From assembly GCA_965263355.1 (NCBI GenBank), contig CBDHHL010000056.1:1056001-1120000 (forward strand): a stretch of DNA of 64,000 nt, read 5' to 3'. A program made the position numbers and the translations under genes. The notes beneath the pieces were generated by a model that had not been told where the DNA came from, did no database searches, and saw nothing but the letters and a program-made list of their open reading frames with translations. Positions 1,413 through 50,599 of the stretch are shown in pieces. How positions within the stretch are numbered: position 1 is the stretch's first letter; every line of letters starts with the position of its first letter. Origin of the DNA: Leptolyngbyaceae cyanobacterium. Its GTDB lineage: Bacteria; Cyanobacteriota; Cyanobacteriia; Phormidesmidales; Phormidesmidaceae.

Positions 1413-1863
1413 AGGTCAATAAGAAGATTCCAATGTTTTGATAGAAAATTAGATGAAGCACTTAAACATACCTTCACCAATGGATTGAATCTAATTGATT
1501 AAAAACAGTCTTATTTCTTAGATTCAATAATTTTCCTATGCTATTATTCCCAAACGTCAGTATTCTTTTGGTCTGCTTATTATTACCTAGATTAAATATA
1601 GATCTAAAATTAAATAGCCCCCTTTTTATGAGGTTTTGCCAAGATTCTTTAGACATCATCTTGGTCCGATAGTTCTGGATCTACACATATTATTTTCGAT
1701 GTATTTACATTGGGCTAATTTGGGGAAATCTTGGATTGAAATAGCCTCAGTTTTAGTTGGGGAAATCGACTGTGACTGTTATATCTAGATATCTAATTTA
1801 TTAGCTTAATGCTTTGGCGAATATACACCTAGCTAAACAGTCATTTATTTTGGAGATGGTTTT

Positions 1864-2292
1864 ATGCCAGAGCAGTATTCTGAGAAACAAGTAAAGGAGA
1901 TCTTGTTTGAGGCCATGAATGGCTCAGAACAAAAAGTATTTTCTCGTACACAGTTGGAAGAAATGGCTGTAGAACTCGGTATTAGTCCAACCGCCTTAGA
2001 CCAAGCAATTACATCTGCTACGGCGAAACAACCATTCCCTCCAACTCAAGCCTATACTTCAAATCCATTCTCCCAGCTATCTGTGCCAAATCGGTTAGCA
2101 TCTGTTCCGCCAGTAAACCAGGTTGGATTTAATATCCACTTGAAAGTTTATTGCGCTGTGAATATCTTTTTGCTGCTGCTGAATTTTACCCTAGCGGGGA
2201 CAATTACTTGGGCTGTCTTTCCCCTGCTAGGCTGGGGCCTAGGTGTTTCATTACATTCAATCAGCGGAATTTCTAAGCGTTCAAGGCGCTAA
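1864..2292 (+). CDS. 2TM-domain membrane protein
   Basis: N-terminal 'YSEKQVKEIL...LEEMAVELGIS' and C-terminal 'HLKVYCAVNIFLLLLN...WAVFPLLGWGLGVSLH' (2TM pattern); GGAG RBS upstream. Confidence 0.75.
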   Translation: MPEQYSEKQVKEILFEAMNGSEQKVFSRTQLEEMAVELGISPTALDQAITSATAKQPFPPTQAYTSNPFSQLSVPNRLASVPPVNQVGFNIHLKVYCAVNIFLLLLNFTLAGTITWAVFPLLGWGLGVSLHSISGISKRSRR

Positions 2293-2355
2293 TTTAAAGC
2301 TGTATTTATTTAGGCTTAGTCTGCGGCATAACGCTTTCAAAAACAAGGAAAATCA

Positions 2356-4164
2356 ATGTTAAACACTCCAGAAAAGGCAGCTGACAATTTGGTTTATGAT
2401 GTCGTAATTATGGGGGCAGGTTTTGCCGGTAATTGCCAAGCGCGACATTTACTGTTGAACATTCCAGGAATTAAAATTGCGTTAATAGATCCCCGTCCTC
2501 CAGAGCGCTCTGAAAAAGACTTAAAGGTGGGAGAGGCGACGGTAGAAATCGCTTCAATGTTTCTTACAACTTCATTGAAACTGCACCAGTACTTGATTGA
2601 AAATCATTTCCCAAAATATGGGCTTACTTTTCATTGGGCGAAAGATCCAGCAAAAACAACAAATGTGGAAGATTATCACAACATTTGGGTGAATGGCTTA
2701 CCTGCAATCGAAGCCTTTCACTTAAATCGCGCTACATTTGAGCAAGATGTCTTAAAAATGAATCAGGATATGGGAGCGACATTTTACAATGGTCGTGTTA
2801 CCCAGTTTGATTTAGCTTCAGACAATAGCTTGCACACCATTACTGTCAAGTTAAATGAAGGATATACTACCTTAAAATCATCACACTTAGTGGATGCAGC
2901 TGGTCGACGGTTTCTCATTGGGAAGAAAACCGACAATTTAATTTCCAATAACGAGAAGTTACTCAATATTAATACGGGAGCAGCTTGGCTACGAGTCAAA
3001 AATTTCAAGCCTAATCTTTACGATGGCGTTGAAGATCCGTCCTTTGGTAATGTGAATCGACACTATACAACACATCACTGGATGGGACATGGGCATTGGG
3101 TATGGACAATACCTATTAGCAATGCACCCAATGAGCTATCCATTGGTATTGCACACCATAAGGACGCAATTGCATCCAAAGATATTAATACGCTTTCCAA
3201 GTTCAAAGATTTTTTGAAGGCCAACCACACCTTTCTTTTTAAATTTGTTGAAAGTGGAGAGATTGTTGATTTTCATTATTTGCCTAAGGTTGCTCATATG
3301 AGCAAACAGCTCGTATCAAAAAATAATTGGTATGTGCTAGGCGATGCTGCTTACATGTTTGACCCATTTTACTCGTCAGGACACAGCATAACTGCCATAG
3401 CAGTTGAAAGTGTGACGGAAGTAATTCGAGCCAAACTTGCTAAGGAAGCAGATGCTGACAAAAAACAGGAACTATACAATCAATTCTTGGTACAGCACGA
3501 AAAGATGTATCGTCAGTTCTACCAAAAACATGAAGCCCATCTAGGCCATGCAAGCATAATGAGCTGGCGAATATATCTGGAAAATATGCTTTGGTTTGGA
3601 ATGCTGGTTCCCATGTTTGCTGGCAAATGGTTCCTCGATCCTCAATTCCTTAAAAGCAGTGAGAAGCTCAGTGAATACCTTGTTTGGGGGAAGGACTATA
3701 ATCTTTGTCAAGATATTTACGACCAGTTTGATGAATTAATCAAACGCGACATCAACATTGGTTTTATGGACTATACCAGAGCCGATCAACTGGCATTTGG
3801 ATATGGTCCACACAAATCTATTTTTACAGGAGATTGGACACACAACTGTAAAGTAGAACCTTTACGCTTAAATATTTTTAATAGTATGAAACAGGCCTTA
3901 TTTTATCTCGCCATTTTCTATTTTAAATTGCGATTAAAAGGGTTTGGCCTTAAGGGTGTTTTTAATCTTCAAACGTTGTGGCAAGTCTCTCGAATACTTT
4001 CATGGGCAATTTACTGTGCAATGGGGGAACAGATTTATCTAGTAAAAACGCGTAATCTTGCTAGCAACTCTATTATCGAAAAAAACAGAAAAGAATTTAC
4101 TACGTATCACTATCAACCCCAACTACAACCCTGGATTTCCCAGGATTCCAGCAAAACAGCATAA
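2356..4164 (+). CDS. Flavin-dependent halogenase-like FAD enzyme
   Basis: GAGFAG FAD motif, KVGEAT, WxWxIP halogenase motif (WVWTIP), GDAAYMFDPFYSSG. Confidence 0.75.
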   Translation: MLNTPEKAADNLVYDVVIMGAGFAGNCQARHLLLNIPGIKIALIDPRPPERSEKDLKVGEATVEIASMFLTTSLKLHQYLIENHFPKYGLTFHWAKDPAKTTNVEDYHNIWVNGLPAIEAFHLNRATFEQDVLKMNQDMGATFYNGRVTQFDLASDNSLHTITVKLNEGYTTLKSSHLVDAAGRRFLIGKKTDNLISNNEKLLNINTGAAWLRVKNFKPNLYDGVEDPSFGNVNRHYTTHHWMGHGHWVWTIPISNAPNELSIGIAHHKDAIASKDINTLSKFKDFLKANHTFLFKFVESGEIVDFHYLPKVAHMSKQLVSKNNWYVLGDAAYMFDPFYSSGHSITAIAVESVTEVIRAKLAKEADADKKQELYNQFLVQHEKMYRQFYQKHEAHLGHASIMSWRIYLENMLWFGMLVPMFAGKWFLDPQFLKSSEKLSEYLVWGKDYNLCQDIYDQFDELIKRDINIGFMDYTRADQLAFGYGPHKSIFTGDWTHNCKVEPLRLNIFNSMKQALFYLAIFYFKLRLKGFGLKGVFNLQTLWQVSRILSWAIYCAMGEQIYLVKTRNLASNSIIEKNRKEFTTYHYQPQLQPWISQDSSKTA

Positions 4165-4338
4165 GTTTTAGGGGTAAGATGTTTGATAAAATAATGCCTG
4201 GTTCCTCCCTTGGCGTTGCATTACATCCTGTCCAATTCAAAGTCTCCACACTCAAGGGGATAGGCATGTATCAGGCTATCTAGAGGTTAAACAGCTGTCT
4301 TCGAATACGGACAGTCATCGCGAGAAAAAGGCAACACC

Positions 4339-5301
4339 ATGGTTTTAAAGATAGGGTCCTTGCGGCAACGTTTGTTTGGTCGGCCCCTGGTGGACATTAA
4401 TGACATATGGCAAGATTCTGATGTTGAAACTAGGCTACGTCAACAGCTGATCGCAGGTATTAACTCATTTATTACGGGGTATAATACCGCCCTTGAAGTA
4501 GGGCTAACCCCATCTCTATATGGTCAGTTGCAATCAACAGCACCTGATTTTCGCACCTTTGCCTATGAAGGGGCCGGCATGGGCATGGCCATGATAGACT
4601 GCACCACCCCCGGCAAGGGTAAACGCCTACTGACATTTGCAGAACAAGCTTCTAATTACACAAACCTGGCCTATATTGGCGCGGGCTTTACCATGGCCGT
4701 ACTGAATCGGAGTTTGAAAAGTACCCTAGGGCCAATCGATCCTATGTATCGCTGGTGGGTCGTGGATGGGTGTGGGTTTTATCATGGTCTTTTCCATTGG
4801 GAAAAAGCGGTTGTCAATCAGTGGGTTCCTCCAAAGATAAATGGATATGGACAACGAGCCTTCGACCGGGGAATTGGTCGCAGTTTATGGTTTAAAATCA
4901 ACGACAATATTGACAAACTTATTCATATAGTCCAAGCGTTTCCCGAACATCGCCGGGCGGATCTTTGGAGTGGTATTGGGGTGATGAGCACCTATTTGGG
5001 AGACTGCGATAAGGATAACCTGCTTGCTGTCAAAACTGCGGCTGGCACTTATGCATCCTACGTAGCCTTAGGGGCAGCCCTGTCCGCTACAGCACGACAC
5101 TTTGCCAACAATATTAGCGAACATCATAATGTAGCCTGTGCTGTCTATTGTGGAATGTCAGCAGAAACAGCTGCTAAGCTTGCTATTGAACTGGAACAGA
5201 CGTTGACGATTGACCCTGACGAATCTGTTTTTGAGTCTCATCCAATTTTTGAGACCCATCGCGAGAAAATTCGATCATGTTTTGTTTCACTTGAATCATG
5301 A
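4339..5301 (+). CDS. DUF1702 family protein (UnbL-like enediyne cassette protein)
   Basis: FAYEGAGM, DGCGFYHG, DRGIGRSLWF and DLWSGIG motifs; adjacent to a PksE-like gene. Confidence 0.8.
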   Translation: MVLKIGSLRQRLFGRPLVDINDIWQDSDVETRLRQQLIAGINSFITGYNTALEVGLTPSLYGQLQSTAPDFRTFAYEGAGMGMAMIDCTTPGKGKRLLTFAEQASNYTNLAYIGAGFTMAVLNRSLKSTLGPIDPMYRWWVVDGCGFYHGLFHWEKAVVNQWVPPKINGYGQRAFDRGIGRSLWFKINDNIDKLIHIVQAFPEHRRADLWSGIGVMSTYLGDCDKDNLLAVKTAAGTYASYVALGAALSATARHFANNISEHHNVACAVYCGMSAETAAKLAIELEQTLTIDPDESVFESHPIFETHREKIRSCFVSLES

Positions 5302-15099: not shown

Positions 15100-16242
15100 C
15101 TAAACGTTTTCTAGATTGCTATACTGTTCTACTGCTGCTGTTGGAGGGAGACTGGCATGGGCAAAAAGTGAAAGAGAACTTGCGTTCGTCTGGCATAGGC
15201 AGGTGTGGGGGTGGTCGGGACCAACGGTAGCGTTAAGAATTGAGAGAGCACGCTCAAATAGTTTAGCCGCTTCGGCTAGGTGATTCGTCTGTTGTAGTAG
15301 AGATGCTAGATTATTTAAACTGATGGCTACTTCAGGATGGTTTAAACCTAATAGGGTTTCTTTAATGGTTAATGTCTGACGATAAGCCTGTTCGGATGGC
15401 TGAAGTTGTCCTTTGGCTTGTAATGATGCGGCCAGGTTGTTGAGGTTAAGGGCGACGTCGTAATGGGTAGGGCCATATTGTTGTTTGAAAAATGCGATCG
15501 CATTCTCAAAATAAACGATGGCCTCATCCCATTGTCCCAGACCGTGTAAAATTGCCCCCAGGGCAGCCCCGTCGGCAATTGTTTGGGCATGGTCTAAACC
15601 GAATAAGTCTAGATGAAGCTGATAGGATTTGCGAGCATAGGGTTCGGCTTCAGCATAGTGACGCCGGGCATGGTTTAGGCCAGCCAGGTTGTGATAAAGG
15701 GTGGCTACTTCCCGATGGTGTTCGCCATAGTGTTGAATCAGATCAGCTAAGGCAGTTTGATAAAGGTTTTCGGCAGTATCAAAACGCCCCCAATATTTAT
15801 ACACAATAGCCAAGTTGTTTATCAGGCCAATCCAAACGGGTTGATGGCGTAGGTCATGATTTTCAGCTAAGGCAATTGCCTGTTGAAATGTCTGTTTAGC
15901 CGGTAAATACTTACCTTGAATACGATATAGATTGCCCTGTTGCGGTAGAATTTTTAACTCCAGAGGAAGAAAGATTTTGGCAGGGTAGATGAGTTTGATG
16001 TTGTTATACAAAGCTGATTGGGCTGATTGCAGCTGAGTTTGGGCCTCATCGTAGCGGGCTTGGGCCTCCAGGCTAGTAATTAGGTGACTTTGCAATTTGA
16101 CTTGAATGACTAAGCCTGCAGGTGGGGGTGGAAGGAGGGGGAGAAGTTGGAGACAGCGTGTTATGGCTTTAGTGTGGTGATGATTTGCCTGATGGTAGAC
16201 GATGTCTTGCAGCTGGTGTTGCCAATTGATTAAGTTGCCCAT
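15100..16242 (-). CDS. Tetratricopeptide repeat protein (kinesin-light-chain-like 42-aa TPRs)
   Basis: Repeats such as HPEVAISLNNLASLL, HREVATLYHNLAGL and HYDVALNLNNLAASL. Confidence 0.85.
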   Translation of the reverse strand: MGNLINWQHQLQDIVYHQANHHHTKAITRCLQLLPLLPPPPAGLVIQVKLQSHLITSLEAQARYDEAQTQLQSAQSALYNNIKLIYPAKIFLPLELKILPQQGNLYRIQGKYLPAKQTFQQAIALAENHDLRHQPVWIGLINNLAIVYKYWGRFDTAENLYQTALADLIQHYGEHHREVATLYHNLAGLNHARRHYAEAEPYARKSYQLHLDLFGLDHAQTIADGAALGAILHGLGQWDEAIVYFENAIAFFKQQYGPTHYDVALNLNNLAASLQAKGQLQPSEQAYRQTLTIKETLLGLNHPEVAISLNNLASLLQQTNHLAEAAKLFERALSILNATVGPDHPHTCLCQTNASSLSLFAHASLPPTAAVEQYSNLENV

Positions 16243-16354: not shown

Positions 16355-17077
16355 CTATGAAAGTTGTGCTGTTTCAGAAGTCACAAGTATTTCATTATGA
16401 TTCAGAAACATCTGTTCAACCGTAGGTGCATCATCAGGTATACCTTCATGATTACCACCGATGATCGTAGCTAACTCTTGCACACTTAACGGAACAACTA
16501 CTTTATGTCGATTAGTTAAAACAGGCTTCTCATGGGAAACAATTGTTTCATTATGGTTAAACTGAATAGCACTACCACTAATATCGTCCTCAGGTTTGCC
16601 GTCGCCATTACCACCTGCGATCTCCACTAAATCTTCTATACTTAGCAGAACAGCTTTGAGTGGGTGAGCTTGAGCTACATTTTTACGAGAAACTATAGTT
16701 TCATTGTGATTGGCAGAAAGAGCGTCATCCTCATACTCATTTTCGGGTTTGCCTGTACCATTGCCACCTGCGATCATGGCTAAATCAACTAAATTTAGCA
16801 GAACAATTGTGGGTGACTTAGGTTGAGTAGTATTTGGAGAGGAAACAATTATCTCATTATGGTTAAGCGTAATGCCATTATCCTCATACTCATCTTCGGG
16901 TTTGCCTGCGCCATTGCTACCTGCGATCATGGCTAAATCATCCATGCTAAATTCAACAAGATTAGGCTGTTCAACAATATGTGTCAGTAAAATACCCTGA
17001 TCGATTAGATGATTATTGGCTTGGAGCTTTTGACGTTGATTTGGTTTCATTAGTGAATCGGTGATTTGGTTTGTCAT
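16355..17077 (-). CDS. Repetitive multi-cassette peptide precursor: 4 x (double-glycine leader + 21-aa segment ending NHNE)
   Basis: GS/GG at aa 53-54, 104-105, 155-156 and 207-208, each preceded by (L/F)(S/N)xx(D/E)LxxIx; NHNE ends exactly 21 aa after each GG/GS. Confidence 0.75.
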   Translation of the reverse strand: MTNQITDSLMKPNQRQKLQANNHLIDQGILLTHIVEQPNLVEFSMDDLAMIAGSNGAGKPEDEYEDNGITLNHNEIIVSSPNTTQPKSPTIVLLNLVDLAMIAGGNGTGKPENEYEDDALSANHNETIVSRKNVAQAHPLKAVLLSIEDLVEIAGGNGDGKPEDDISGSAIQFNHNETIVSHEKPVLTNRHKVVVPLSVQELATIIGGNHEGIPDDAPTVEQMFLNHNEILVTSETAQLS

Positions 17078-17390: not shown

Positions 17391-20300
17391 TCACTTCCAA
17401 AGTAGTATAGAAGGCAGTTCATTATGGGCTAATCGCAGCAGCTGATAGCCGATGCCGGCGGTGCCTTGGAAAAATCCAGGGTTGAAAACAGAATTGGGTA
17501 AATTGGCAAATAGCTGATATGCGCCTGCCTGTTGAGCACGGGCAACAACAGCTGTAGCTATTTGCAGGGCTGTCTGCCGCCAGCGGTGGTTTTCTGGAGC
17601 GATGCTGTGATCATATCGTTGAGCGCCAGCTAACAGTACCTCAGCCACACCCAAGTTACCACAACAAAGATGATCAATCGCCTTGATGTCTTGTTTCTCA
17701 GTAGTTTGCAAAGCAATGTGTAAGTCTTGTTCTAGCTCTGCCGAGGCTATAGTCTCCATACTACCGATGCGTCCTAAGCCAATACCGGCAGCACCATGAC
17801 ACCATTGCACGAGAAATGTGGGATTATCGTCACGCAGGTCAGGCCAATTTGCCTGAGACTGAGAAAATACACTGCGCTCATAGGCTATACCTTCCAGAGC
17901 AGCCTCCCGATAACGATTATCATCGGTCACCGCATAAAGGCGCAACAGGGCATAGGCTATACCTGCCGCTCCATGGGAAAAGCCTGTCAAAGGCTTTTCA
18001 GCGACAGTTTTCCAAGCTTTGGGATCTGTCACCGAGGTAACCTGACAGCTAAGCAGGTGGTTACCACAGGCAATTGCCTGCTGTAGGACCATCGCATCAT
18101 CAGTGACCTGATACAGAGACAACAAACCAAGAATGCAGCCTGCTGCTCCGCTAATAATATCCAGGCTTTGGTCAGCCGCAATCAGTTCCGGTGTAATCCC
18201 TGTGGCCAGGGTCTGGGCATAGGCCAGCAATGTCTCATCCTCTAAGAACCGACTGATTTTGATAAAGCTATAGATCAACGAACCGACGCCACCAGCACCA
18301 CCCAGCCCCATTAGCCGCACATAGCGCTGTAGCGACAGTATATCCATGACCTGAAGTCGCTCATTTAAGGGGTGTATCACCCGCAGTGCCAAATCTCGGT
18401 AGTGAGAGTCCTCAGTGACCTGATACAGTGCGGCAAAAAACAGAGCTACTCCACAACGACCATCATACAGACTGTCATTGAGCATCTGTTGCTGAAAACG
18501 CTCTGCCTGGGCCACAAACCCCATGCCAATCCAGTTGAGACTGCCATTGTCATCCTGTAAGGCCCTTGCTTCCAGGTCTGTAGCAATGTCTCGGGCAGCT
18601 TGTATCAGCTGCTGATGGTCTAACACAGGCCCATCACTAGTGATATCAGACTGGTTGTCATGGCTGCCGGGTATCGTCATTGGTTGGGCTACTTTGGCAT
18701 AGAATGCCCCTTGAATAATGGCTACCTGTTGCGCCAGACTCGCCTCATTTAATGTCTGAATTTGTTCAGTAACGGCTTGATAACTGGACTGCTTAAAATA
18801 ATTGGCAATGGTCCGACCCTGATTGAGGGGGAGGACTGCATCACTGGTATTAGCAGTAAAGAAGGGAATATCTAACTGTTCCATTGCCTGCCGTTCAGCC
18901 TGTAGCAGAGGCCAGGCATCTGGTTTTTCATTGGCAAGAACAAAGGCTCGGCTGAGATGATCCAGCTCGATGCTATAGTCAACACCATGCTTGAGATAGC
19001 CTGGTGTACAGGCTTGACGCAACAGGGAAAAATAAATGCGAGTGGCTCGCAGAATAAATCGGACCCGCTGGTGTTGCAGATTGGCCAGGGGGCCATTGGT
19101 GGCCAGCAATTGTGATGTTTGTGACCTAAGGAAGCGATACATTTGCTCAAACCCGTCCACAATTTTAGCCTGATACTCATTGGAAGACAGGGGCATATCT
19201 TCGAGATGGGGGACATTTTTCTCGATGGGCAAGGTCACCATTTCGGAGCGCAGATGCATGTTGTCGGTATTAATCGCTTGCCAGCGCAGCAGTTTACGAA
19301 TATGTTGTCGCTGCTCAGTGTGGCCAAGACCACTGATATCATTGGCGATACGCTGATCGGCACTAAAATCCCAACGAGGCAGAAGACCAGTGCGCAGGAC
19401 TGAATTCTGAAAAAGTTGGGCCGACTCGGTATCCAGAACGTCCATTTCAGGGGAGTTTTCGATTAAGTTGGCATCATGATGCAACAGGGTTTCCATGTCA
19501 ATCAGCACCAGATGTTCGCCACTGGCAATTAAATTTTCATAGTGGCAGTCAGTGCCTCGCAGCACATAGATTAAACATGACAACATGCCTGCCCGTTGGT
19601 AAAACCGATCAACTGCATCAGCATCAGTACAGGGTAAATGCTCAACAAATTCTACCCAGCCGTAGTCCTCGCGGTTAAGCACCTGCAGCACTTTGAAATC
19701 TAGCAGCTGACTGTGGTGATTACACCAGGTGAGAAACTGGTTCCAGGCTACTTCCAGCCCCAGGTCTTTGGGTTTATACACCAGCTTGAGGCCCGAATCA
19801 AAGGCAAGTAAGAATACGGTGCGACCCTGATTGTGGGGATCAGACAGAGAGGTTTGAATGGTGGTGACTTTACCCAGGGGGGTAGAGGTGGAATTTTCCG
19901 ATAAAAACTGTTGTTGAATTTCTCCATAATCTTGGGTTAGCCGCTGAATAAATTCTGTTGTGGCATCTACCCATAGGTCGACGGCAACGGCAACGAGGCG
20001 TCCAAGGACTGGATAGTTTTGAAAGAAATGGATTAAGCCATCCTGTAATAGCTCCTGAACAAACTGTTGATATTGGCTATTGGATATGCCTGATTCAGGA
20101 TCTTCGATGCCCAAGAGGTTTAGTAGGTTTTGACCAAAGCTACGGTCTTTGGCGAATTCAAAGTTGAGGGTTTGGTTGCTTAATCCAGAGAGTCGTTGCA
20201 GTAATGCCCGCTCCAGGGGAATGTAAGCTTGATCTGAAAGGACAGAAATTGGTAATGCGGCTGGATTGAGCTGTGAGGCTCCTAATCGGGTGAGTAATCG

Positions 20301-20735
20301 TTGTCGAGCGACGTGGATAGCCGGTAGCCAAATGTCTTCAAAGGGAATAGGATGGTCTGGATCGGTGGGCCAGGGAAAGATGGGGGCTGATACGTCAGTG
20401 GAGGTGGTTTGGACGATGTGTCGTAGGGTATCTGTCCAGGGGGGTAGAGAGTGCTCTGGAGCAAGCTGAACGTCGCCTAGATAGGGACGTACAGTATCCA
20501 GGGTAAGTCCATCCCACTGGAGGCGTTTGTCTAAAATGTCTCGTTGATTTTCATGGGCTACGGTTTGACACCAGCGATCGCACCGTCGATCAATCTCTGT
20601 TTGGCTGTTTTGATCGGGGTTGGGGATATAGCGATCGCTATCCAGTCGTTCCCAAAGAAAGCTGGCATCGGCAACAATCCGAGCCAGCTCAGCATCGGTT
20701 AAGTGAGCCTTTTCCATGATCAATGTATGAGACAT
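17391..20735 (-). CDS. lanM: Class II lanthipeptide synthetase LanM (ProcM-like, CCG motif)
   Basis: Dehydratase motifs SDPH, YKPK, TDCHYENL, IDMET; cyclase motifs GFSHGAAG, WCHGAAG and HLCCGNLG. Confidence 0.95.
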   Translation of the reverse strand: MSHTLIMEKAHLTDAELARIVADASFLWERLDSDRYIPNPDQNSQTEIDRRCDRWCQTVAHENQRDILDKRLQWDGLTLDTVRPYLGDVQLAPEHSLPPWTDTLRHIVQTTSTDVSAPIFPWPTDPDHPIPFEDIWLPAIHVARQRLLTRLGASQLNPAALPISVLSDQAYIPLERALLQRLSGLSNQTLNFEFAKDRSFGQNLLNLLGIEDPESGISNSQYQQFVQELLQDGLIHFFQNYPVLGRLVAVAVDLWVDATTEFIQRLTQDYGEIQQQFLSENSTSTPLGKVTTIQTSLSDPHNQGRTVFLLAFDSGLKLVYKPKDLGLEVAWNQFLTWCNHHSQLLDFKVLQVLNREDYGWVEFVEHLPCTDADAVDRFYQRAGMLSCLIYVLRGTDCHYENLIASGEHLVLIDMETLLHHDANLIENSPEMDVLDTESAQLFQNSVLRTGLLPRWDFSADQRIANDISGLGHTEQRQHIRKLLRWQAINTDNMHLRSEMVTLPIEKNVPHLEDMPLSSNEYQAKIVDGFEQMYRFLRSQTSQLLATNGPLANLQHQRVRFILRATRIYFSLLRQACTPGYLKHGVDYSIELDHLSRAFVLANEKPDAWPLLQAERQAMEQLDIPFFTANTSDAVLPLNQGRTIANYFKQSSYQAVTEQIQTLNEASLAQQVAIIQGAFYAKVAQPMTIPGSHDNQSDITSDGPVLDHQQLIQAARDIATDLEARALQDDNGSLNWIGMGFVAQAERFQQQMLNDSLYDGRCGVALFFAALYQVTEDSHYRDLALRVIHPLNERLQVMDILSLQRYVRLMGLGGAGGVGSLIYSFIKISRFLEDETLLAYAQTLATGITPELIAADQSLDIISGAAGCILGLLSLYQVTDDAMVLQQAIACGNHLLSCQVTSVTDPKAWKTVAEKPLTGFSHGAAGIAYALLRLYAVTDDNRYREAALEGIAYERSVFSQSQANWPDLRDDNPTFLVQWCHGAAGIGLGRIGSMETIASAELEQDLHIALQTTEKQDIKAIDHLCCGNLGVAEVLLAGAQRYDHSIAPENHRWRQTALQIATAVVARAQQAGAYQLFANLPNSVFNPGFFQGTAGIGYQLLRLAHNELPSILLWK

Positions 20736-21178: not shown

Positions 21179-21460
21179 TTAGCAGACCGCCACGGCATTA
21201 GTTGGGAGACAGTTACTGCTTAGGTCAGCACTATTAATACAAATACGACCACCCGCAACGGCAAGCAAATCCTGCTCACCCAGTTCAGTGGGAGAGGTAA
21301 TCTGCTTTGTCATCATTTGAGAAATATTCTCAAGGGTGAAATCGTGTCCTTTATCTATGCCAGCATCCATGATTAGTGTAATCACCTCTGCTAGATTATT
21401 TGCTTCCTTGATTTGCTGAGACAATTGAGTATCGCCGAGCAATGTTTTGATTTGATTCAT
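21179..21460 (-). CDS. Nif11-like leader lanthipeptide precursor (LanA); core RICINSADLSSNCLPTNAVAVC
   Basis: Leader D.QL.QQIK.A....EVI......GHDFT.E...ELGEQDLLAVAGG; 22-aa core with 3 Cys and 4 Ser/Thr; AAGGAG RBS; next to lanM. Confidence 0.9.
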   Translation of the reverse strand: MNQIKTLLGDTQLSQQIKEANNLAEVITLIMDAGIDKGHDFTLENISQMMTKQITSPTELGEQDLLAVAGGRICINSADLSSNCLPTNAVAVC

Positions 21461-22143: not shown

Positions 22144-22265
22144 CTAACGAACCCTGAGCAGATCCGACATAATCCAACCAGTGTTGCAAGCGACTAAATT
22201 AGTCAGGAGAGTCCAACTGAATAACAATTCCCTGACTGAGGATATCCATAGAGTTTATATATCAT
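22144..22265 (-). pseudogene. Glutathione S-transferase remnant (internal deletion)
   Basis: MIYKLYGYPQSGNCY resembles the GST N-terminus (KLYG...SGNCYKV) and stops early; LQHWLDYVGSAQG follows shortly after and resembles a GST C-terminal helix. Confidence 0.5.
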
Positions 22266-23700
22266 GCTCCTGTTTCCATTGATTAACAATGGTCTGGAGA
22301 GTTTGTTGATTAAGTTTTCCCTGGGCATTTCTAGGCAGGCTATCAACGGGGACCCACAGCTTAGGGCACTTAAAACGAGCAATGGTGTCCTGCAGAGCGG
22401 CACAGATCTCTTGGGCTACCAGGGTAGAGGTATAAGGCACATAGACCGCTGTGACACATTGCCCCCAGTAAGGATGTGGCATCCCCAGGACCGCCACATC
22501 GGTCACCAGGCCAGTAGCCCGAATGGCTGCCTCAACTTCAGCTGGAAACACATTTTCGCCACCGGTAATAATTTTGTTACTAAGGCGACCTACTAGGGTG
22601 AGATAACCTTGCTCATCCAGGTATCCCGCATCATCAGTTTTGAAAACAGTTGGTAAGTGGGGATTCTCTATGGACGTTTGTCCACTCCATCCATGGGGAT
22701 AGTAGCCCAGGGCTAAGGAATCCGCTACAATCTGAACCTGCCCCAGAGTCCCGGCAGCAACAGGCTGTCCCTGATCATCCACAATGGTCACCTGGGCATG
22801 GGGCAGCACTTGCCCGACACTTTGGTTGCCCGCCAAAAAATCGGTTGGTTTCAAGGTGGCAATTTGGGCAGCGGTTTCTGTTGCACCATAGCAAGGGGCC
22901 AGGGGCAGACGATTTGAACGAGCCTGGGTAAGTAATTGTGGCCAACTGGGGGCACCACCCAGCAAAATGGTTTTGCATTGGCTTAACCATTGAGCCAATG
23001 CTGGCTGAGCCAGCAATGCTTGCAACTGAGTAGGGACCAGGGAAATAAACCACTCCGATGGGTCAACCGGTAATGCCTGCCCTGTCTTAAGGGCCTTAAA
23101 CGTCATGAGCTGTAGCCTTCCTCCGGAGAGAAAAGAACGCATAAATTGCATTAAGCCACTAACGTGATAAAGGGGTAGAACACATAGGGAATTGACGGTA
23201 TCTATTTGGAAATAGTGCTGAAAGCCATACGCTGCTGCTGCCAGTGTGTCCCAACGATGTATGACAAATCGAATGGTGCCTGAGGATCCCCCAGTTGGAA
23301 TCAAGATTAGATTTTCATCGTGACTTGATGGGTTGAGGGATAATGGCGTGACCCCCTCCGTAAGACCAACGTTTTGACCAGCAGATTGTTGCTTAAAATA
23401 ATCACAATTTCCCCATATCTGGTCTGGTTGGGCAATGGCCAGAGCCTGTTGCCATTCCATCATTCCCCATTGAGAATTACCGAGAAATACCTGAGGATAA
23501 GTGGCCTGAGCCGCCAGGAATCCAGCCAGAAAACGCGTAGGGTCTGGTTCTGCCAACAGGATAGATTGCCCATGGCCAGTTTTCTTGACTGTCGCAAATT
23601 CTTGGGCAAGCGTCTCAACTAGGGTCAGAAATGCTTGGGCATCCTGTCCCACTAGCCAGTTATCCCGAGTTCGTTTTTTCAATAGGTCTAATGTGTTCAC
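22255..23700 (-). CDS. menE: O-succinylbenzoate-CoA ligase (cyanobacterial type)
   Basis: IPTGGSSG, LPLYHVSGLMQFMRSF, YGATET, IITGGENVFPAEVE and LPRNAQGK adenylation motifs; downstream of menD. Confidence 0.85.
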   Translation of the reverse strand: MNTLDLLKKRTRDNWLVGQDAQAFLTLVETLAQEFATVKKTGHGQSILLAEPDPTRFLAGFLAAQATYPQVFLGNSQWGMMEWQQALAIAQPDQIWGNCDYFKQQSAGQNVGLTEGVTPLSLNPSSHDENLILIPTGGSSGTIRFVIHRWDTLAAAAYGFQHYFQIDTVNSLCVLPLYHVSGLMQFMRSFLSGGRLQLMTFKALKTGQALPVDPSEWFISLVPTQLQALLAQPALAQWLSQCKTILLGGAPSWPQLLTQARSNRLPLAPCYGATETAAQIATLKPTDFLAGNQSVGQVLPHAQVTIVDDQGQPVAAGTLGQVQIVADSLALGYYPHGWSGQTSIENPHLPTVFKTDDAGYLDEQGYLTLVGRLSNKIITGGENVFPAEVEAAIRATGLVTDVAVLGMPHPYWGQCVTAVYVPYTSTLVAQEICAALQDTIARFKCPKLWVPVDSLPRNAQGKLNQQTLQTIVNQWKQEHDI

Positions 23701-23774
23701 CGATTGATACCTGAGAGATTTACCCTAATCAGGGGACTTCATCGGCCCCCACAATATGTTGATCTATCTTGGAT

Positions 23775-25565
23775 TTAGATGGGGAAAGCAATAGGCTGTA
23801 GTGCTTTCACAATTTGCTGCTGTAATGTTTGGTGTAGGGCCAGATTCTCACGGCGATTGGTGGCCACCTCAATGACGGCAGAACATTGATGATCTAGGGC
23901 TGTTTTATAAACCTGGGTGAATTCTGTTACTGTTTGAGGACAATAATAGTCGAGATTAAACATCTGGCTGACCGCCTTAAATGTGAACCCATGGGGGGCA
24001 CCAAAATAGGATTCGAATACATCGTCACATTGGGCGACGGGTAAAAAGGAGAAGATGCCGCCACCATCGTTGTTAATGACGATAACAATCACTGGTTGGG
24101 CCAGGCCCTTTAGGATTGCCAGGGAATTCAGGTCATGTAATAGGGATAAGTCTCCCACTAACAGGGTTACCGGTGTTTGTCTTCCCATAGCAAATCCGGC
24201 AGCAGCGGCGATCGCACCTTCAATTCCACTGGTACCGCGATCGCAACCCACTATCCTGGTATTGCCGTCAGGAGCACCGTACATATCCATATCGCGGATT
24301 GGCATACTGTTGGCTAAATAAAGACCATGGTCAGGGGGAAGTTGGCGGGATACCAACCGAGCAATGGCCGGTTCATTGATAGTAGGTTGAGATTGGAGAA
24401 CTTGATCAATGATCTGGTGAATGCGTTGAGATGCGTTTATCAGTTCCGTTACCCAGGCTTCAACACTCCGGGTATGGATTTGAGGCAATAACAGCTTCGT
24501 TAGATAACTCAGATCAGCATCTAGCCGCAAGGAGACCGTGTGGGCAGGATCATGGCGCTCAGGGTTGTTGGCAATTACAATATGGTATTGTGGCTGGCCG
24601 GCTAACCATTGTAAAAAGCGTTTAGAAATCAGTCGCCCCCCAATCTGCAACACTGTGTCCACTGACCATTGTTGATAGTTTTCTAGCAACCAGAGCTGAT
24701 CAAAATAGGGAACAATTGTTGGCAATGTACTATTTAACCGTAGACCTGATTGAATATCAGCAAACACTGGCCAGTTCAAATGTTTAGCCAGGGTCAACAC
24801 CGCTTGTTGCTCGGTCTCATTCGCCAGTTGTCCCACCACCAGTAGTCCCCGTCGGGTCTGATTTAGGATCTCCGCCAGGTTAGCAACATCTGAGGCTAGG
24901 GGAACTGTGACCGATTGTCCATAGTGACTGTAAGCAGTGGACCGGGCCAGCCAGTTTTGTAAGGGCGCTAAATAGTCTCTCTCAAACAGCTCACCCATTT
25001 CAGTTTCAACCGTTTGAACTGTGGGAGCTAAGGGCTCTCGAAATTGGCAATTGAGATGGACAGGACCGCCGGGAGCACGGCAGGCACGATAGACAGCCTG
25101 GTCAACCGTGGTTAAGAGCATCTGGGGGGCGATTTGGAGATCTGGACAGGGTAGTTCAAACTCCCATCGAACATGGTGTCCGTACAAGTGTGTTTGCCGA
25201 ATGGTTTGATTGGCTCCAGTTTGCCTTAGCTCTGGGGGGCGGTCGGCGGACAGAATAATTAGAGGCACGGCATCTGTCGCTGCCTCAATTACTGCTGGGT
25301 AATAGTTGGCGGCAGCGGTACCTGAGGTACACACGAGCACCGCTGGCTGGCCCGTAGCCCGAGCATAGCCCAATGCATGGAAGGCGGCGGCCCGTTCATC
25401 GAAGCATACGATCGTTTGTGCCTGGGCATGGCGTGCGATCTCAATCGTCAGGGGTGTGGAACGAGATCCCAGTGAGATAACGAAATAAGCAATATTATTT
25501 CTGACCAGTTCTTCAATCAATAGAGAGCCCCAAAGACTATTGATGTTGGCAGTATTAATGGCCAT
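23775..25565 (-). CDS. menD: SEPHCHC synthase (ThDP-dependent)
   Basis: GSRSTPL, DERAAAF, CTSGTAAAN, ADRPPEL, GANQTI, NSMPIRD, GDLSLLHDLNSL, NNDGGGIF. ORF extends to 25595. Confidence 0.92.
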   Translation of the reverse strand: MAINTANINSLWGSLLIEELVRNNIAYFVISLGSRSTPLTIEIARHAQAQTIVCFDERAAAFHALGYARATGQPAVLVCTSGTAAANYYPAVIEAATDAVPLIILSADRPPELRQTGANQTIRQTHLYGHHVRWEFELPCPDLQIAPQMLLTTVDQAVYRACRAPGGPVHLNCQFREPLAPTVQTVETEMGELFERDYLAPLQNWLARSTAYSHYGQSVTVPLASDVANLAEILNQTRRGLLVVGQLANETEQQAVLTLAKHLNWPVFADIQSGLRLNSTLPTIVPYFDQLWLLENYQQWSVDTVLQIGGRLISKRFLQWLAGQPQYHIVIANNPERHDPAHTVSLRLDADLSYLTKLLLPQIHTRSVEAWVTELINASQRIHQIIDQVLQSQPTINEPAIARLVSRQLPPDHGLYLANSMPIRDMDMYGAPDGNTRIVGCDRGTSGIEGAIAAAAGFAMGRQTPVTLLVGDLSLLHDLNSLAILKGLAQPVIVIVINNDGGGIFSFLPVAQCDDVFESYFGAPHGFTFKAVSQMFNLDYYCPQTVTEFTQVYKTALDHQCSAVIEVATNRRENLALHQTLQQQIVKALQPIAFPI

Positions 25566-25639
25566 AGTCGGTAATTTAGACAATTTTAGCTTCAATTTTA
25601 GAGTCGATTGTTAATGGTTTACTATTGTGTGTCTCGGAG

Positions 25640-25901: not shown

Positions 25902-28103
25902 CTAAACGGCCTGAATCAATTGAGTGTAGATCCCATTGCGTTGCCATAAGGTGTCATGGGTGCCCTGCTCGGCTACTTTGCCATTGTCTAAAACAACAAT
26001 CTGATCACAATCTCGAATGGTACTCAGACGATGGGCCACTATCACATGGGTGCAGCCACGCTGTTGTAGATTATGGCTAATGCGCTGTTCAGTTTCAGCA
26101 TCCAGGGCACTGGTCGCTTCATCCATTACCAAAATTGAAGGATTATGAACCAATGCACGGGCAATTTCTAGGCGTTGGCGTTGTCCGCCGCTGAGATTGT
26201 GTCCCCCTTCCATTAACTCACCCTGAAATCCGCCAGGAATAGTGTGTACTGCTTCAGTGATCAAAGCATCGTCACAGGCTTGGATAAGTTGTGGTTCTGC
26301 CACGCGATGATCCCATAGGGTGAGGTTGTCACGAATGGTACCGCCAAATAAAAAGATATCCTGTTCCACCAGTGCCAGAGATCTGGCCAGAATCGGTCGA
26401 GGGATAGCCGTTATGGGCACACCATCCAGTAAAATTTCGCCGGACCAGGGCTGATAGAGACCACAGATAAGTTTAGCCAGCGTCGATTTACCCGAGCCGC
26501 TGCCCCCTACCAGAGCTAAACGTTCTCCAGGTTGCAGGGTGAGATTAAAATTTTCTAGTAAAGGTGGTGCAACCCGAGAATATCCAAAGGTAACCTGACG
26601 CAGTTCAAGATGACCGCTCAGCTGTTGCGTCTCTGACCATTGCTGAAGAGCTTTTGGTGAGGACTCGATCAATGGTGACTGTAGTTTGCGATCGCTAACA
26701 TCAACCATTGGATCTAACGGATGTTGCAAAACATCTTCTAAAGACGTTAGGTTACCATCTAGTTCCTGTAGACGACTGCCAAAATTAACTAAATCGGTAA
26801 CTGGCATTTGAAACTGTTGCATCAAATGTTGAAACGCCACCACCATACCAATGGTCATTTCACCATTCATAACCCGAAGTCCCCCTATTAGCAAGATTAA
26901 CAATGTTGTTAAAGCCGTTAAAAAAATAGGTAAAATTCCGAGGTTTTGGTTGGAGAGTTCAAGGTCCTGCTGGGTGTTAACTACCTTGGCATAATACCCA
27001 GCCCAGCGAGTAAAAAAGTCGGACTCCATGGCAGAGGCCTTAATGGTTTCTATATTCTTGAGTCCAGTAATGGCCACACTCTGGGCTTTGCCTCTATCCA
27101 ACTGTAACTTGAGGCTAGCATCAATGCGGTGGCGAGAAATCCATTGGAGTACCAACACATTGAGAACGGAAAATACAATCCCAATAATCGTTAGTAGACC
27201 ATCGTAAGCAAACATAATTCCGGCATAGAAAATCAGCATAACACTGCTGATAATGGTGGTGGCCAGTTGTCCAGAGAGGACATCGGCAACTCGATTGTTA
27301 ATCTGCAGACGATTGACCACTTCTCCGGCTAAGCGATGGGCATAAAAGTCCACAGGCAACCGTAGGCTTTGCCAGAGAAAATGACTGGACATGGTGGTGG
27401 CCAGTTTAATCTTGAGTTGTCGCAAAAAGCGTAGTTGTAGCAGCGACAGGATGATTTGGATTGTCAGCGTAAGGAGCATGGCCAGAATTAATGGCCGGAA
27501 CCACTCAGTACGATGGTCAATTAAAATCTGATCGACAAAAATTTGGCTAAAAACCGGTAAAATAATATTGGGAACCGTCAGGAGAAAGCCAGCAATAACA
27601 CAGTAGAGAATCGTCCCTCTAGAGGCCCGCAGACGATCGTTTAAGGCTTTTACTAAATTGGGTTTATGTCCCCCTGGCTGAAAATTGGGTCCTGGGTTTA
27701 AGGTGAGAAGCACTCCAGTAAAGGCTGCGTCAAACTCCTTGAAAGAAACACTGCGGGGACCTGTCGCTGGGTCGTTAATAAATACGCGATCGCGACCAAT
27801 CCCCTCAATTACAACAAAGTGGCCAAAATTCCAGAATACAATGTAGGGGGGCTTAAACTGACTGAGTTGTTCCAGTTCTGCTTTGTAACCATTGGCCTCC
27901 AGACCATAGCGCTGAGCTGCTTTAATAATGTTGCTAGCTTTACTCCCGTCCCGAGAAACCCCGCACTCCACCCGCAACTCGGTCAGGGGAACAATCCGTT
28001 TATAGTAGGCCAAAATAATGCCCAGGGTAGCTGCTCCACATTCCACCATTTCCATTTGAAGTAGGGTGGGAGTAGGTACTCGTTTTGGTTGTAAAAAAAG
28101 CAC
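25902..28103 (-). CDS. NHLP-family peptidase-containing ABC transporter (C39 peptidase/permease/ATPase)
   Basis: QMEMVECGAA (Cys), HFVV (His), NDP; GGSGSGKS, LSGGQRQR, DEATSALD. GTG start at 28103 with GGAG RBS (ORF extends to 28211). Confidence 0.93.
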   Translation of the reverse strand: MLFLQPKRVPTPTLLQMEMVECGAATLGIILAYYKRIVPLTELRVECGVSRDGSKASNIIKAAQRYGLEANGYKAELEQLSQFKPPYIVFWNFGHFVVIEGIGRDRVFINDPATGPRSVSFKEFDAAFTGVLLTLNPGPNFQPGGHKPNLVKALNDRLRASRGTILYCVIAGFLLTVPNIILPVFSQIFVDQILIDHRTEWFRPLILAMLLTLTIQIILSLLQLRFLRQLKIKLATTMSSHFLWQSLRLPVDFYAHRLAGEVVNRLQINNRVADVLSGQLATTIISSVMLIFYAGIMFAYDGLLTIIGIVFSVLNVLVLQWISRHRIDASLKLQLDRGKAQSVAITGLKNIETIKASAMESDFFTRWAGYYAKVVNTQQDLELSNQNLGILPIFLTALTTLLILLIGGLRVMNGEMTIGMVVAFQHLMQQFQMPVTDLVNFGSRLQELDGNLTSLEDVLQHPLDPMVDVSDRKLQSPLIESSPKALQQWSETQQLSGHLELRQVTFGYSRVAPPLLENFNLTLQPGERLALVGGSGSGKSTLAKLICGLYQPWSGEILLDGVPITAIPRPILARSLALVEQDIFLFGGTIRDNLTLWDHRVAEPQLIQACDDALITEAVHTIPGGFQGELMEGGHNLSGGQRQRLEIARALVHNPSILVMDEATSALDAETEQRISHNLQQRGCTHVIVAHRLSTIRDCDQIVVLDNGKVAEQGTHDTLWQRNGIYTQLIQAV

Positions 28104-28201
28104 AATGCTTGGTCTCCAAGAGAGTTTGCAAAAGATAGGTGTCAGAAAATGTCTAATACCAAACCCGAGTTCATTAACCCCGATAAAAAATACATCAGTC
28201 C

Positions 28202-28228
28202 GTAGGGGCAATCCCTTGTGGTTGCCCT
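28202..28228 (+). repeat. GTAG-type REP-like short palindrome
   Basis: gtaggggcaatcccttgtggttgccct; near-identical copy at 41057-41083 (-), related copy at 35765-35790 (-). Confidence 0.65.
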
Positions 28229-28256
28229 GTAATATTGGGTGCAGGTAGAATAAACT

Positions 28257-29702
28257 TTATCCCCTAACCCATTCTCGTAAAATAGGCACTAAAAACGTAA
28301 TTGGAGCCCGTTCTTCCACTGTTACTCGCGCTGTCAATGTCGTGCCTAAGGTCAGCGACTCTTCAGGTCCCTGAGACGATGACCAGGCATACCCACTGGA
28401 TGTCTCAGCATCCGTTTGCAGTTCAACCGTCACCGCCAGATGCCCGGTTCCCCCCGTCATCAGGGTATCCACAATCTCTGGATTACCCACTGCCGCAATT
28501 GCCCCTTCACGGGACACTGGCAACGACGATACCCCCGTTACCGTTCCTCGAATACTGCCAAACCGTTCACGCTTTACCGTATCTGGCGCAATCATAATCT
28601 CCATCCCTGGTTGTACCCGTTTTCCCTGGGCGACAGTAAAGTAGATGACCCCGGTGTCTGGCTGTGTCTGCCCAGGTGCCATCGCTTGTAGACGCCCCAA
28701 TGACATGCCTGGAGCAACTACCTGCCCCACCGTTGCCGTCGTTTCCACAATACAGCCCGACTGAAGACTTCTAATTTCACTATTTTCAATAATCTGCCGT
28801 TTTAGCTGAGAAATTTGCTGCTCTAAAGCTTGTTTTTCTTGCTCATACCCTTGTAGAGCGTTTAAATTCTCCTGTTCTAGTTGCTTTCCTCTGGTTTCTA
28901 AAGCTTGCAAATTAGCCTGCACTTGGGAAATCTGATTCAGATTATTTAAATGCTGTTGCTGAGCTTCCACCATTTGTAAGTTTAATTGCTGTAGCTGGGT
29001 ACCCAGGTCTCCCAGACGGTGCAGATTTTGACGATGTTCTTGTTCTGCCTGTAATACCATATCTGGAGCAATGGCCCCTGCTTTAACCAGGGACTGACGA
29101 CTATGGAGGCGCTGTTCCAAAACAGGTGTCAGTTCTTGGGTATCTTTGAGTTGTTGTTGTAAATTAGTACGCTGTTGCTCTAGCATTAAGGTATTTTGAC
29201 GATTAAGCGCTGGCGTTAAGGATTCTGCATTACTTAGCTGTTGTTCCATCCCCAGACGCTGGGTGGCCATTTCTGCCTGGGCCAGTCCTGTTCGTTGCGT
29301 TCGAATTAACTCGGCCTGATAAAACTGTTGTTGCAGCTGAGCGTGCTTACTCTGTTGTTGCTGTAGCTGCTGATTTAGATCCGTTGGATTAATAGTGGCC
29401 AGCAGCTCTCCGTTTTTCACGCATTGCCCTGCAGTCATCGGTAAAGTCTCTAATTGCCCCGAAATAGGTGATTGGAGGGGGATAACCTGATGTGGGTCTA
29501 GCAAAATACCCTGGCCCGTGACCGTCATGGGCATTTTACCCAACAGACTCCAAGCGGCCCCAGCCCCCAAGAGTAGCGTCATCATGCCCAAGGGTAGCCA
29601 GTCTTTAGGCTTGACCAGTCGGATCGCCTGATCCAACTTTTCAGGTGATTGGAGTCGCTCCAGGGATTGTTTACGAAACAGGTGTGTGTTTTGTTCAAGC
29701 AT
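28257..29702 (-). CDS. NHLP bacteriocin system secretion protein (HlyD family)
   Basis: LFRKQSLERLQSPEKLDQ N-terminus, TM helix, long coiled coil, WSSSQGP, PITFLVP. Confidence 0.92.
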   Translation of the reverse strand: MLEQNTHLFRKQSLERLQSPEKLDQAIRLVKPKDWLPLGMMTLLLGAGAAWSLLGKMPMTVTGQGILLDPHQVIPLQSPISGQLETLPMTAGQCVKNGELLATINPTDLNQQLQQQQSKHAQLQQQFYQAELIRTQRTGLAQAEMATQRLGMEQQLSNAESLTPALNRQNTLMLEQQRTNLQQQLKDTQELTPVLEQRLHSRQSLVKAGAIAPDMVLQAEQEHRQNLHRLGDLGTQLQQLNLQMVEAQQQHLNNLNQISQVQANLQALETRGKQLEQENLNALQGYEQEKQALEQQISQLKRQIIENSEIRSLQSGCIVETTATVGQVVAPGMSLGRLQAMAPGQTQPDTGVIYFTVAQGKRVQPGMEIMIAPDTVKRERFGSIRGTVTGVSSLPVSREGAIAAVGNPEIVDTLMTGGTGHLAVTVELQTDAETSSGYAWSSSQGPEESLTLGTTLTARVTVEERAPITFLVPILREWVRG

Positions 29703-29731
29703 GCTTCCGCCTTTTGCCTTCCTACGTTGTT

Positions 29732-34750: not shown

Positions 34751-34811
34751 ACCTCTTAATATGCGCGTAGTCTAGAGCTAATTGCAACTGGGCTCTTCGA
34801 ACAAGATAACA

Positions 34812-50548: not shown

Positions 50549-50599
50549 TCAATTAATCAATGTGCGGTAATTTGATCCAACAGCTTATCCACCAGCCCC

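Follow-up and report, generated by a model that had tools for sequence, protein, structure and literature searches.

A four-cassette NHNE-tagged precursor and its TPR partner in a Leptolyngbyaceae cyanobacterium: a probable RiPP-like system

What kind of peptide does a protein give rise to when a double-glycine leader, a variable segment and the tetrapeptide NHNE recur in it four times, and which gene product acts on it? The question is raised by a gene in a 64,000-nucleotide stretch of Leptolyngbyaceae DNA, which was analysed as a whole and is called the window here. Sequence comparison and structure modelling suggest that the gene probably encodes the precursor of an undescribed RiPP-like system, in which an NHN[E/Q](T) tag would be read on the precursor before export by a dedicated TPR protein, as enzyme or adaptor. 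About half of that probability falls to catalysis at the His-Asn bond or the Asn side chain, and half to an adaptor or chaperone. The precursor and its cassettes are the following.

Positions 16355-17077, minus strand: four-cassette precursor, 240 aa, no Cys
Positions 16841-16954, minus strand: cassette 1, with a 13-aa leader end (GS) at 16916-16954, a 17-aa core, NHNE at 16853-16864 and the follower IIVS
Positions 16688-16801, minus strand: cassette 2, with the leader end (GG) at 16763-16801, core, NHNE at 16700-16711 and the follower TIVS; used in the complex model
Positions 16535-16648, minus strand: cassette 3, with the leader end (GG) at 16610-16648, core, NHNE at 16547-16558 and the follower TIVS
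Positions 16379-16492, minus strand: cassette 4, with the leader end (GG) at 16454-16492, core, NHNE at 16391-16402 and the follower ILVT

Each cassette can be read as a leader, a variable core, NHNE and a short follower. The NHNE motifs are at residues 72, 123, 174 and 226 and the G[GS]|N junctions lie at 53, 104, 155 and 207, with unit spacings of 51, 51 and 52. The segments from GG or GS to NHNE are 21 aa each, and carry net charges of -5, -5, -4 and -5. In the six frames of the window, NHN[EQ] occurs only at these four places, and three or more NHNE motifs appear in 0 of 200,000 residue shuffles of the precursor. The four NHNE copies show 100% identity as protein and 86% as nucleotides, the codon differences being synonymous. 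Identity across the units is 49% in the leaders, 62% in core residues 1-8, 13% in the last nine core residues and 7% in the linkers. The fourfold repeat reported in an earlier note on this DNA, with its spacings, segment lengths and followers, is thus real, and the absence of Cys, on which the note excluded lanthionine formation by LanM, is borne out. Its contrast between diverged linkers and fixed GG/GS and NHNE also holds, with the refinement that the last part of the core has diverged as well.

The units are 59-72% alike at the DNA level, and the stretch lies within one contig in two DNA runs with 0 and 1 differences (the runs are from one study, possibly the window's own source), which makes an assembly artefact unlikely. 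AlphaFold2 gives a mean pLDDT of 42 and no confident fold; each of the four leaders is drawn as a short helix and each of the tags as a strand. The closest homologue, at 66% identity, comes from Leptothoe spongobia and has two cassettes. No Pfam or NCBIfam model matches the precursor at cut-off, and only weak leader matches to TIGR03893 and PF16934 lie below it; ten related tagged proteins likewise match no Pfam or NCBIfam model at cut-off. A homologue search at shorter lengths leaves 0 of 30 candidates at E <= 1, and the ESM Atlas contains nothing at 0.9 for the window's precursor and nothing usable for that of locus L003. Rfam gives no match in positions 10000-36000 of the window, and the promoter and terminator scans are at chance level.

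The family that shares the tag comprises 91 loci with 131 precursor ORFs and 433 cassettes, at 1-19 per ORF. A single genome scan gives four of these loci, in Leptothoe, one Pyrinomonadaceae and two Blastocatellia. The genome hosts are Leptothoe and Acidobacteriota only, and the other loci are metagenome contigs. The NHNET pattern is present in 17 of 151 Blastocatellia genomes and 0 in the control. The tandem pattern has matches in 96 metagenome stretches, of which 80 were examined and 44 kept. Left out were 18 without an in-frame tandem, 12 that were CRISPR-like, of low complexity or unrelated, 5 duplicates and 1 missed by the motif filter (36 of the 80). This metagenome sample is biased, because the tandem pattern required a Gly-containing spacer. 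Among the genome stretches, L033, L034, L054 and L061-L063 lack a tagged ORF, L064 has an unrelated protein, L039 (883 aa) is beyond the length filter and L057 duplicates L056. The false matches L071, L074, L081, L101, L115, L118 and L141 are CRISPR-like repeat-spacer arrays whose repeat reads NHN in one frame.

The tag is NHNE in 347 cassettes, NHNQ in 49, QHNE in 25 and QHNQ in 11, and in most cases T plus two hydrophobic residues come next. Of the 130 complete ORFs, 88 stop no more than 15 residues after their last tag. Cores are 8-34 aa long in the family, the shortest being 4 residues plus the tag, and some have Cys pairs; core length, acidity and the lack of Cys are not conserved. Two Sec-type proteins, of 201 aa (L051:7430-8035) and 507 aa (L163:8568-10091), end in NHNETLV, and each is followed by a TPR protein with a hydrophobic N-terminus. 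In L. spongobia TAU-MAC 1115, three precursor genes are accompanied by a single signature TPR. Its nine-cassette precursor (L056:15316-16809) has GG leaders and cores that are mostly C-x-P-W-x-C before the tag; no TPR gene adjoins it, but its contig also carries the single signature TPR of the genome. In Cyanobacteriota the single-motif scan matches 9 of 401 genomes, those beyond L. spongobia being single matches at control level, and of these 8 non-spongobia matches, the 4 examined contain no precursor. The TPR signature is matched in 3 of 120 genomes of L. spongobia's order, two being wrong-frame chance matches. The NHNE system is accordingly rare among the cyanobacteria searched.

The constant partner of the tag is a TPR gene, which the earlier note does not mention.

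Positions 15100-16242, minus strand: dedicated TPR protein of the TPR_10/TPR_12 type with 380 aa, separated by 112 nt from the precursor upstream (Pfam, adjacency, invariant residues, fold, complex model)
Positions 15664-15693, minus strand: signature of the TPR, His184-Arg193 (HNLGGLEHAR in the family consensus), the pocket into which the second Asn of NHNE is predicted to fit

A TPR_10/TPR_12 gene lies directly behind the precursor in all four of the first loci. At 51 loci there is 1 kb or more of sequence downstream of the precursor; 32 of them have a same-strand TPR start within 600 nt and 19 do not, and over all 72 loci the figure is 40. In the reverse direction, loci fetched by the TPR signature alone contain an NHN[EQ] ORF in 19 of 24 cases, within 1.8 kb in 18. 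The five signature loci without a tagged ORF comprise a non-TPR frame, a locus with 252 nt of room, an 83-aa TPR fragment, a leader-only ORF and one with nothing. The signature is present in 27 of 151 Blastocatellia genomes and 4 of 301 Acidobacteriota genomes, with controls at 0.

Residues N142, K149, Y161, H184, N185, G188, H191, N269 and N311 are invariant in the 48 partner TPRs, which form 28 clusters at 70% identity, and R193, R204 and D224 are kept in 47. Among 1,041 generic TPR repeats, His has a frequency of 3.7% at the position of 184 and 4.9% at that of 191. The signature is loosely matched by 1 of 150 generic TPR proteins and by none of seven long TPR-bearing neighbours. A representative-protein search with the TPR profile is dominated by long generic TPR proteins and serves as a control only; tblastn against plasmids gives 31 records, each below 60% identity. 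The partner TPRs contain no conserved Cys or Ser. The window's TPR, on a long branch, differs from the consensus at 187, 190, 210 and 233. Tyr150 is replaced by Phe in 5 of 7 NHNQ-type TPRs versus 0 of 41 NHNE-type ones, a hint only, as they form one clade.

The TPR is modelled as a confident superhelix (pLDDT 95) with kinesin-light-chain-type repeats of 42 residues. Its structural neighbours are APPBP2 (Z 35.4, TM 0.83), MalT domain III (28.5), Rap (25.9) and NprR (23.3), with kinesin light chain close beside APPBP2, and these are binders, not enzymes. Pfam finds no HTH in it, and SET is the only output domain in the family. At least 42 of the 120 homologues listed, out of 883 for the signature region, have a fused SET methyltransferase domain, 41 of them with the signature; SET is C-terminal on the signature TPRs P0007, P0012 and 40 more. 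Stand-alone SET genes (L109, L171), a JmjC gene (L161) and a TIGR03975 RiPP radical-SAM methyltransferase gene (L040, with a related gene at L041) also lie beside precursors. The SET fusions and occasional tailoring neighbours look like the behaviour of a RiPP recognition module with optional tailoring. A Sec-like hydrophobic start is present on the precursor in 5 of 42 pairs, and in those five, as in L163, the TPR has one too, which indicates that the TPR follows its substrate's compartment.

A complex of TPR residues 85-365 with 40 residues around cassette 2 is modelled with a score of 0.75, versus 0.02 for the best of three controls. In the tool's calibration this mark was attained by 116 of the 157 solved pairs and by 2 of the 215 mismatched ones; the alignments used here fall outside that calibration, and the score may be helped by memory of solved TPR-peptide complexes. 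At least 66% of contacts are shared between runs, and the partner pLDDT is 48-52. On the peptide, contact is confined to residues 25-37, which comprise the tag and its flanks; the leader and most of the core stay apart. The modelled second Asn of NHNE packs against H191, G188, A187, A192, A226, A227 and A230, the first Asn against N185, G188 and I146, and Glu-Thr against N268/N269. The interface includes N142, K149, H184, N185, G188, H191, N269 and N311, the same residues that were found invariant independently. The model supports predicted binding of the TPR to the NHNE stretch, and a role for NHNE as a recognition site, as the earlier note had proposed, agrees with the prediction that this stretch alone docks into the invariant pocket.

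Export would fall to a gene trio farther upstream.

Positions 25902-28211, minus strand: C39 peptidase-ABC transporter (TIGR03796), the likely leader peptidase and exporter, probably shared with the lanthipeptide
Positions 28257-29702, minus strand: HlyD-type secretion protein (TIGR03794)
Positions 29732-32050, minus strand: second ABC subunit of the NHLP export cassette (TIGR03797)

The minus-strand order in the window is the NHLP-type export trio (25902-32050), menD, menE, a Nif11-like peptide gene, LanM, the precursor, the TPR gene, and genes for a TPS-domain and a TPR-CHAT protein. The L. spongobia cluster runs from the precursor through TPR, C39 transporter and TPS to CHAT, with the transporter orthologue directly behind the TPR gene (L001). 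The window's menE and menD (22255-25595) lie inside the peptide cluster, and L. spongobia has their orthologues in its corresponding large NRPS/LanM cluster. Beside the export trio, 32153-32914 and 34782-35753 encode His/Glu-rich helical proteins, the first without a convincing Pfam family and the second with a weak AurF match. The edge of a polyketide cluster occupies positions 1-5301, with a ketosynthase start (1-1412, minus strand), a flavin halogenase-like protein (2356-4164) and DUF1702 (4339-5301), a domain known from enediyne clusters.

The C39 domain, at about aa 45-178 of the transporter, has the Cys58/His131/Asp147 triad. PCAT leaders, according to passages of PMC6363468, have hydrophobic residues at -12, -7 and -4 followed by GG, GA or GS at -2/-1, and all four window leaders fit this pattern. 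The leader of cassette 1 has Phe at -12, a substitution that impaired LahT150 cleavage (passages of PMC6363468). The tag is combined with four leader types in the family: GG, K(T/S)xVKAG, acidic IAP and Sec. At loci of at least 6 kb, C39 is present with GG leaders in 8 of 11 cases and with VKAG leaders in 10 of 11, M50 being absent from both; 14 of the 20 IAP-type loci have an M50-HlyD fusion and none of the 20 has C39, and Sec-type loci have neither (3 of 3). The 14 unclassified loci of that size include three with C39 and one with M50. C39 therefore goes with GG or VKAG in 18 cases versus 0, and M50-HlyD with IAP in 14 versus 0. These pairings represent few independent events, since the leader labels cluster on a quick tree, with GG in at least two places and the Sec group as one clade. 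The M50 fusions have HExxH at 14 of 16 loci checked, and an M50-HlyD neighbour matches NF041824 at E 5e-53 and 181 bits, below the 300 cut-off. As far as sequence comparison goes, NHNE is the constant element, and the leader is swappable and tracks the protease.

The claim of a C39/PCAT-type leader is strengthened by the pattern in 4/4 leaders, the intact triad and the C39 genes at GG-type loci. The transporter, described in the note as neighbouring, is 8.8 kb from the precursor and not adjacent. The note's polyprotein, cut into four related acidic peptides, is supported as to the GG leader motif; cuts by C39 alone would give pieces of 51, 51, 52 and 32 aa and no 21-mers, and acidity is not conserved. 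The 21-mers need a second cut, which no conserved protease explains. NHNE is kept in homologues, as the note's reading requires; GG is not family-wide, given the three other leader types. At L091:1671-2636, L109, L120, L171 and L184, a protein of about 320 aa without a Pfam or NCBIfam family is encoded between a GG-type precursor and the C39 transporter (five loci). A DUF5819 and HTTM pair, which we take to resemble the SdpA/SdpB pair, lies directly upstream of GG-type precursors at L004:8210-9690, L182 and L184, which are related loci.

The favoured reading has three steps. As the model predicts, the TPR would bind each NHNE stretch, in the cytoplasm, with the second Asn buried beside the invariant His191. 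The TPR would then act on the tag, most likely by His-assisted chemistry at the second Asn that cuts or caps the C-terminal end of the core; alternatively it would hold the precursor for tailoring and export. Finally, as motif and gene linkage suggest, the C39 domain of the NHLP-type transporter would cut after each GG/GS, with export through HlyD. The products would be four acidic 18-21-mers if the tag is cut, and otherwise the 51-, 51-, 52- and 32-mers; their likeliest role is signalling between cells. A class-defining TPR enzyme, in which invariant His184, His191 and Lys149 activate the Asn of His-Asn and the C-terminus preceding the tag is cut, capped or ligated, is conceivable and somewhat doubtful. 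The same doubt applies to its cargo range, which would extend from cores of 4 residues to secreted proteins of 500. The cyclisation of Asn at the C-termini of inteins offers an analogy for such chemistry, and the Asn-His-Val site of butelase one for chemistry at His-Asn. A zinc site in the APPBP2 groove was considered as a metal precedent and rejected, the zinc being at the dimer interface (passages of PMC10614623).

Three other readings compete with this one. The earlier note looked to LanM, oxidases or CHAT as partners, and the genes concerned are the following.

Positions 17391-20735, minus strand: LanM (TIGR03897), the next gene upstream of the precursor, which looks intact and is judged to be outside the NHNE system
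Positions 21179-21460, minus strand: Nif11-like precursor with three Cys in a 22-aa core (TIGR03798, E 2e-6, 27.9 bits, below the 32.3 cut-off)

It is very improbable that the adjacent LanM (by dehydration without ring formation), diiron-type oxidases or the CHAT protease act on the precursor, even though LanM lies next to it, each core has Ser or Thr, and TPS-CHAT genes come next in both the window and L001, with a TPR-CHAT gene in L003. LanM is found at 2 of 90 loci, both Leptothoe-type clusters, and in L. spongobia some 12 kb separate it from the precursor, and a Nif11-like gene of its own lies next to it. The Cys-bearing Nif11-like precursor in the window is likely the LanM substrate. A second TPS-domain and TPR-CHAT pair at 46514-53476 has no precursor nearby, and no oxidase recurs among the neighbours of family loci. 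This layout gives LanM a substrate of its own and makes CHAT a neighbour of a general kind; the conserved partner is the TPR gene, and CHAT was dropped as an Asn-specific protease. An unprocessed polymer is improbable too, though less so. Only the first leader would be removed, the repeats would stack through NHNET strands into a surface or amyloid-like material, and the TPR would be an export chaperone against aggregation. ORFs with up to 19 cassettes, VKAG-type repeats that look strand-turn-strand on inspection of the sequence, and the strand at each NHNET stretch of the precursor model are consistent with it, although a mean pLDDT of 42 makes those strands weak evidence. A polymer is hard to reconcile with ORFs of one cassette (23 of 131) or two (42 of 131), with the -12/-7/-4/GG pattern kept by every internal leader, and with repeats that vary widely in length and composition between leader types.

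A receptor role for the TPR, as in Rap-Phr, NprR-NprX and AimR, is unlikely, yet the likeliest of these rivals. The exported cassettes would be trimmed by general proteases to short NHNE-containing peptides, which would be taken up again or sensed in the periplasm; the TPR, once bound, would control a partner protein. Rap, NprR, AimR and PlcR are in the top 20 structural matches of the TPR, and the smallest cores, of 4 residues plus NHNE, are in line with such a ligand. Within 4 kb of Blastocatellia loci a membrane Ser/Thr kinase is found at 21 of 41 and an ECF sigma factor at 18 of 41, versus 0 of 20 control stretches, hand-picked from eight genomes, which points to regulated expression or signalling; at L112:595-12232 the tagged precursors alternate with three paralogous kinase-PD40 genes. 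No such kinase-ECF pair adjoins the window's locus, however, no importer recurs among the neighbours of family loci, and the TPR has no DNA-binding or other output domain besides SET; an output of the Rap type, by binding of a regulator, is conceivable. The tag also ends the 201- and 507-aa secreted proteins of L051 and L163. Pocket and tag are invariant across phyla while cores vary even inside one precursor, which is a poor design for a signal and its receptor. A TPR that reads the tag before export, as enzyme or adaptor, is the reading preferred here.

The system would work like a multi-cassette RiPP, by analogy with the leader-core-follower layout of cyanobactins and with PCAT export. A multi-cassette layout is known from PatE in cyanobactins. 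As there, variable cores are flanked upstream by a constant protease site and downstream by another constant site (passages of PMC10885120). In contrast to cyanobactins, the locus lacks a subtilisin-type PatA/PatG pair and a heterocyclase (no S8 protease of this kind is among the window ORFs scanned around the locus, and S8 genes lie beside few relatives only), the motifs differ, and the downstream site is predicted to be read by the TPR. The double-glycine PCAT/AMS peptides of the NHLP/Nif11 export cassette (TIGR03794/03796/03797) resemble the precursor in the -12/-7/-4/GG pattern of all four cassettes and in the linked C39-ABC transporter trio, which is intact and has the triad. Here, however, the leader recurs inside the chain and a second constant tag follows each core, and other NHNE family members use other leaders and proteases. 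Pfam and NCBIfam find no Nif11 or nitrile-hydratase-like leader domain in the precursor, and its lack of Cys and the LanM linkage at two loci set it apart from class II lanthipeptides. The IAP-type leaders of relatives, and not the window's GG-type gene, resemble the ELExMEAP leader of daptides (passages of PMC10036551), and the M50-HlyD neighbours of these relatives resemble the daptide leader peptidase. The DUF-RRE, oxidative decarboxylase and aminotransferase of daptides are absent from the recurrent neighbours, and the invariant C-terminal Thr is lacking (definition in passages of PMC10036551). The NHNE system therefore falls outside the lanthipeptides, the Nif11/NHLP precursors, the cyanobactins and the daptides.

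When compared to known TPR proteins, the partner combines familiar and unfamiliar features. It shares with the RRNPP pairs (Rap-Phr, NprR-NprX, AimR-AimP) an adjoining small peptide gene, probable peptide export and a matching fold. It differs in its 42-residue KLC-type repeats, the lack of an HTH, the diderm hosts, the invariant tag beside a variable core and the multi-cassette precursors. The rap-phr gene order is the reverse of the precursor-TPR order. APPBP2 and kinesin light chain give the best fold matches, and APPBP2 reads a short linear motif in its TPR pocket (passages of PMC10614623); these are eukaryotic adaptors, with 19-28% identity and no link to peptide export. The best NCBIfam match is the FxSxx-COOH TPR FxsT (NF040586), which has the same repeat type and a putative RiPP setting. 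Unlike FxsT, the partner TPR is far shorter, scores 117-148 bits against a cut-off of 300 and goes with another precursor motif.

No description of an NHNE-tagged system was found in the literature, including passages of PMC12710340 and PMC12452194, and motifs given only in figures or supplements, like papers under subscription, would escape such a search. Two RiPP surveys, in the passages covered, contain nothing on a TPR or a tag motif. The widespread bacterial NHNE tag-TPR system is thus apparently undescribed. Its class-defining tag-TPR pair is new, and the leader-dependent exported peptides are of a known kind; should the TPR prove to be an enzyme, the system would be new in category.

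The finding adds an unannotated peptide family that is common in soil Blastocatellia (27/151 genomes) and present in Leptothoe. Enzyme-based genome mining would miss this family, because its sole constant partner is annotated as a TPR protein. The family shows cleanly how, in nature, a single tag-reader pair has been joined to four leader and export systems. If the TPR is a receptor, RRNPP-like signalling would extend to diderm bacteria. If it is catalytic, it would be a new kind of peptide-processing enzyme, in which a TPR fold carries out backbone chemistry on a portable, cargo-independent tag that is plugged into four export routes, and the short tag may be useful in protein engineering.
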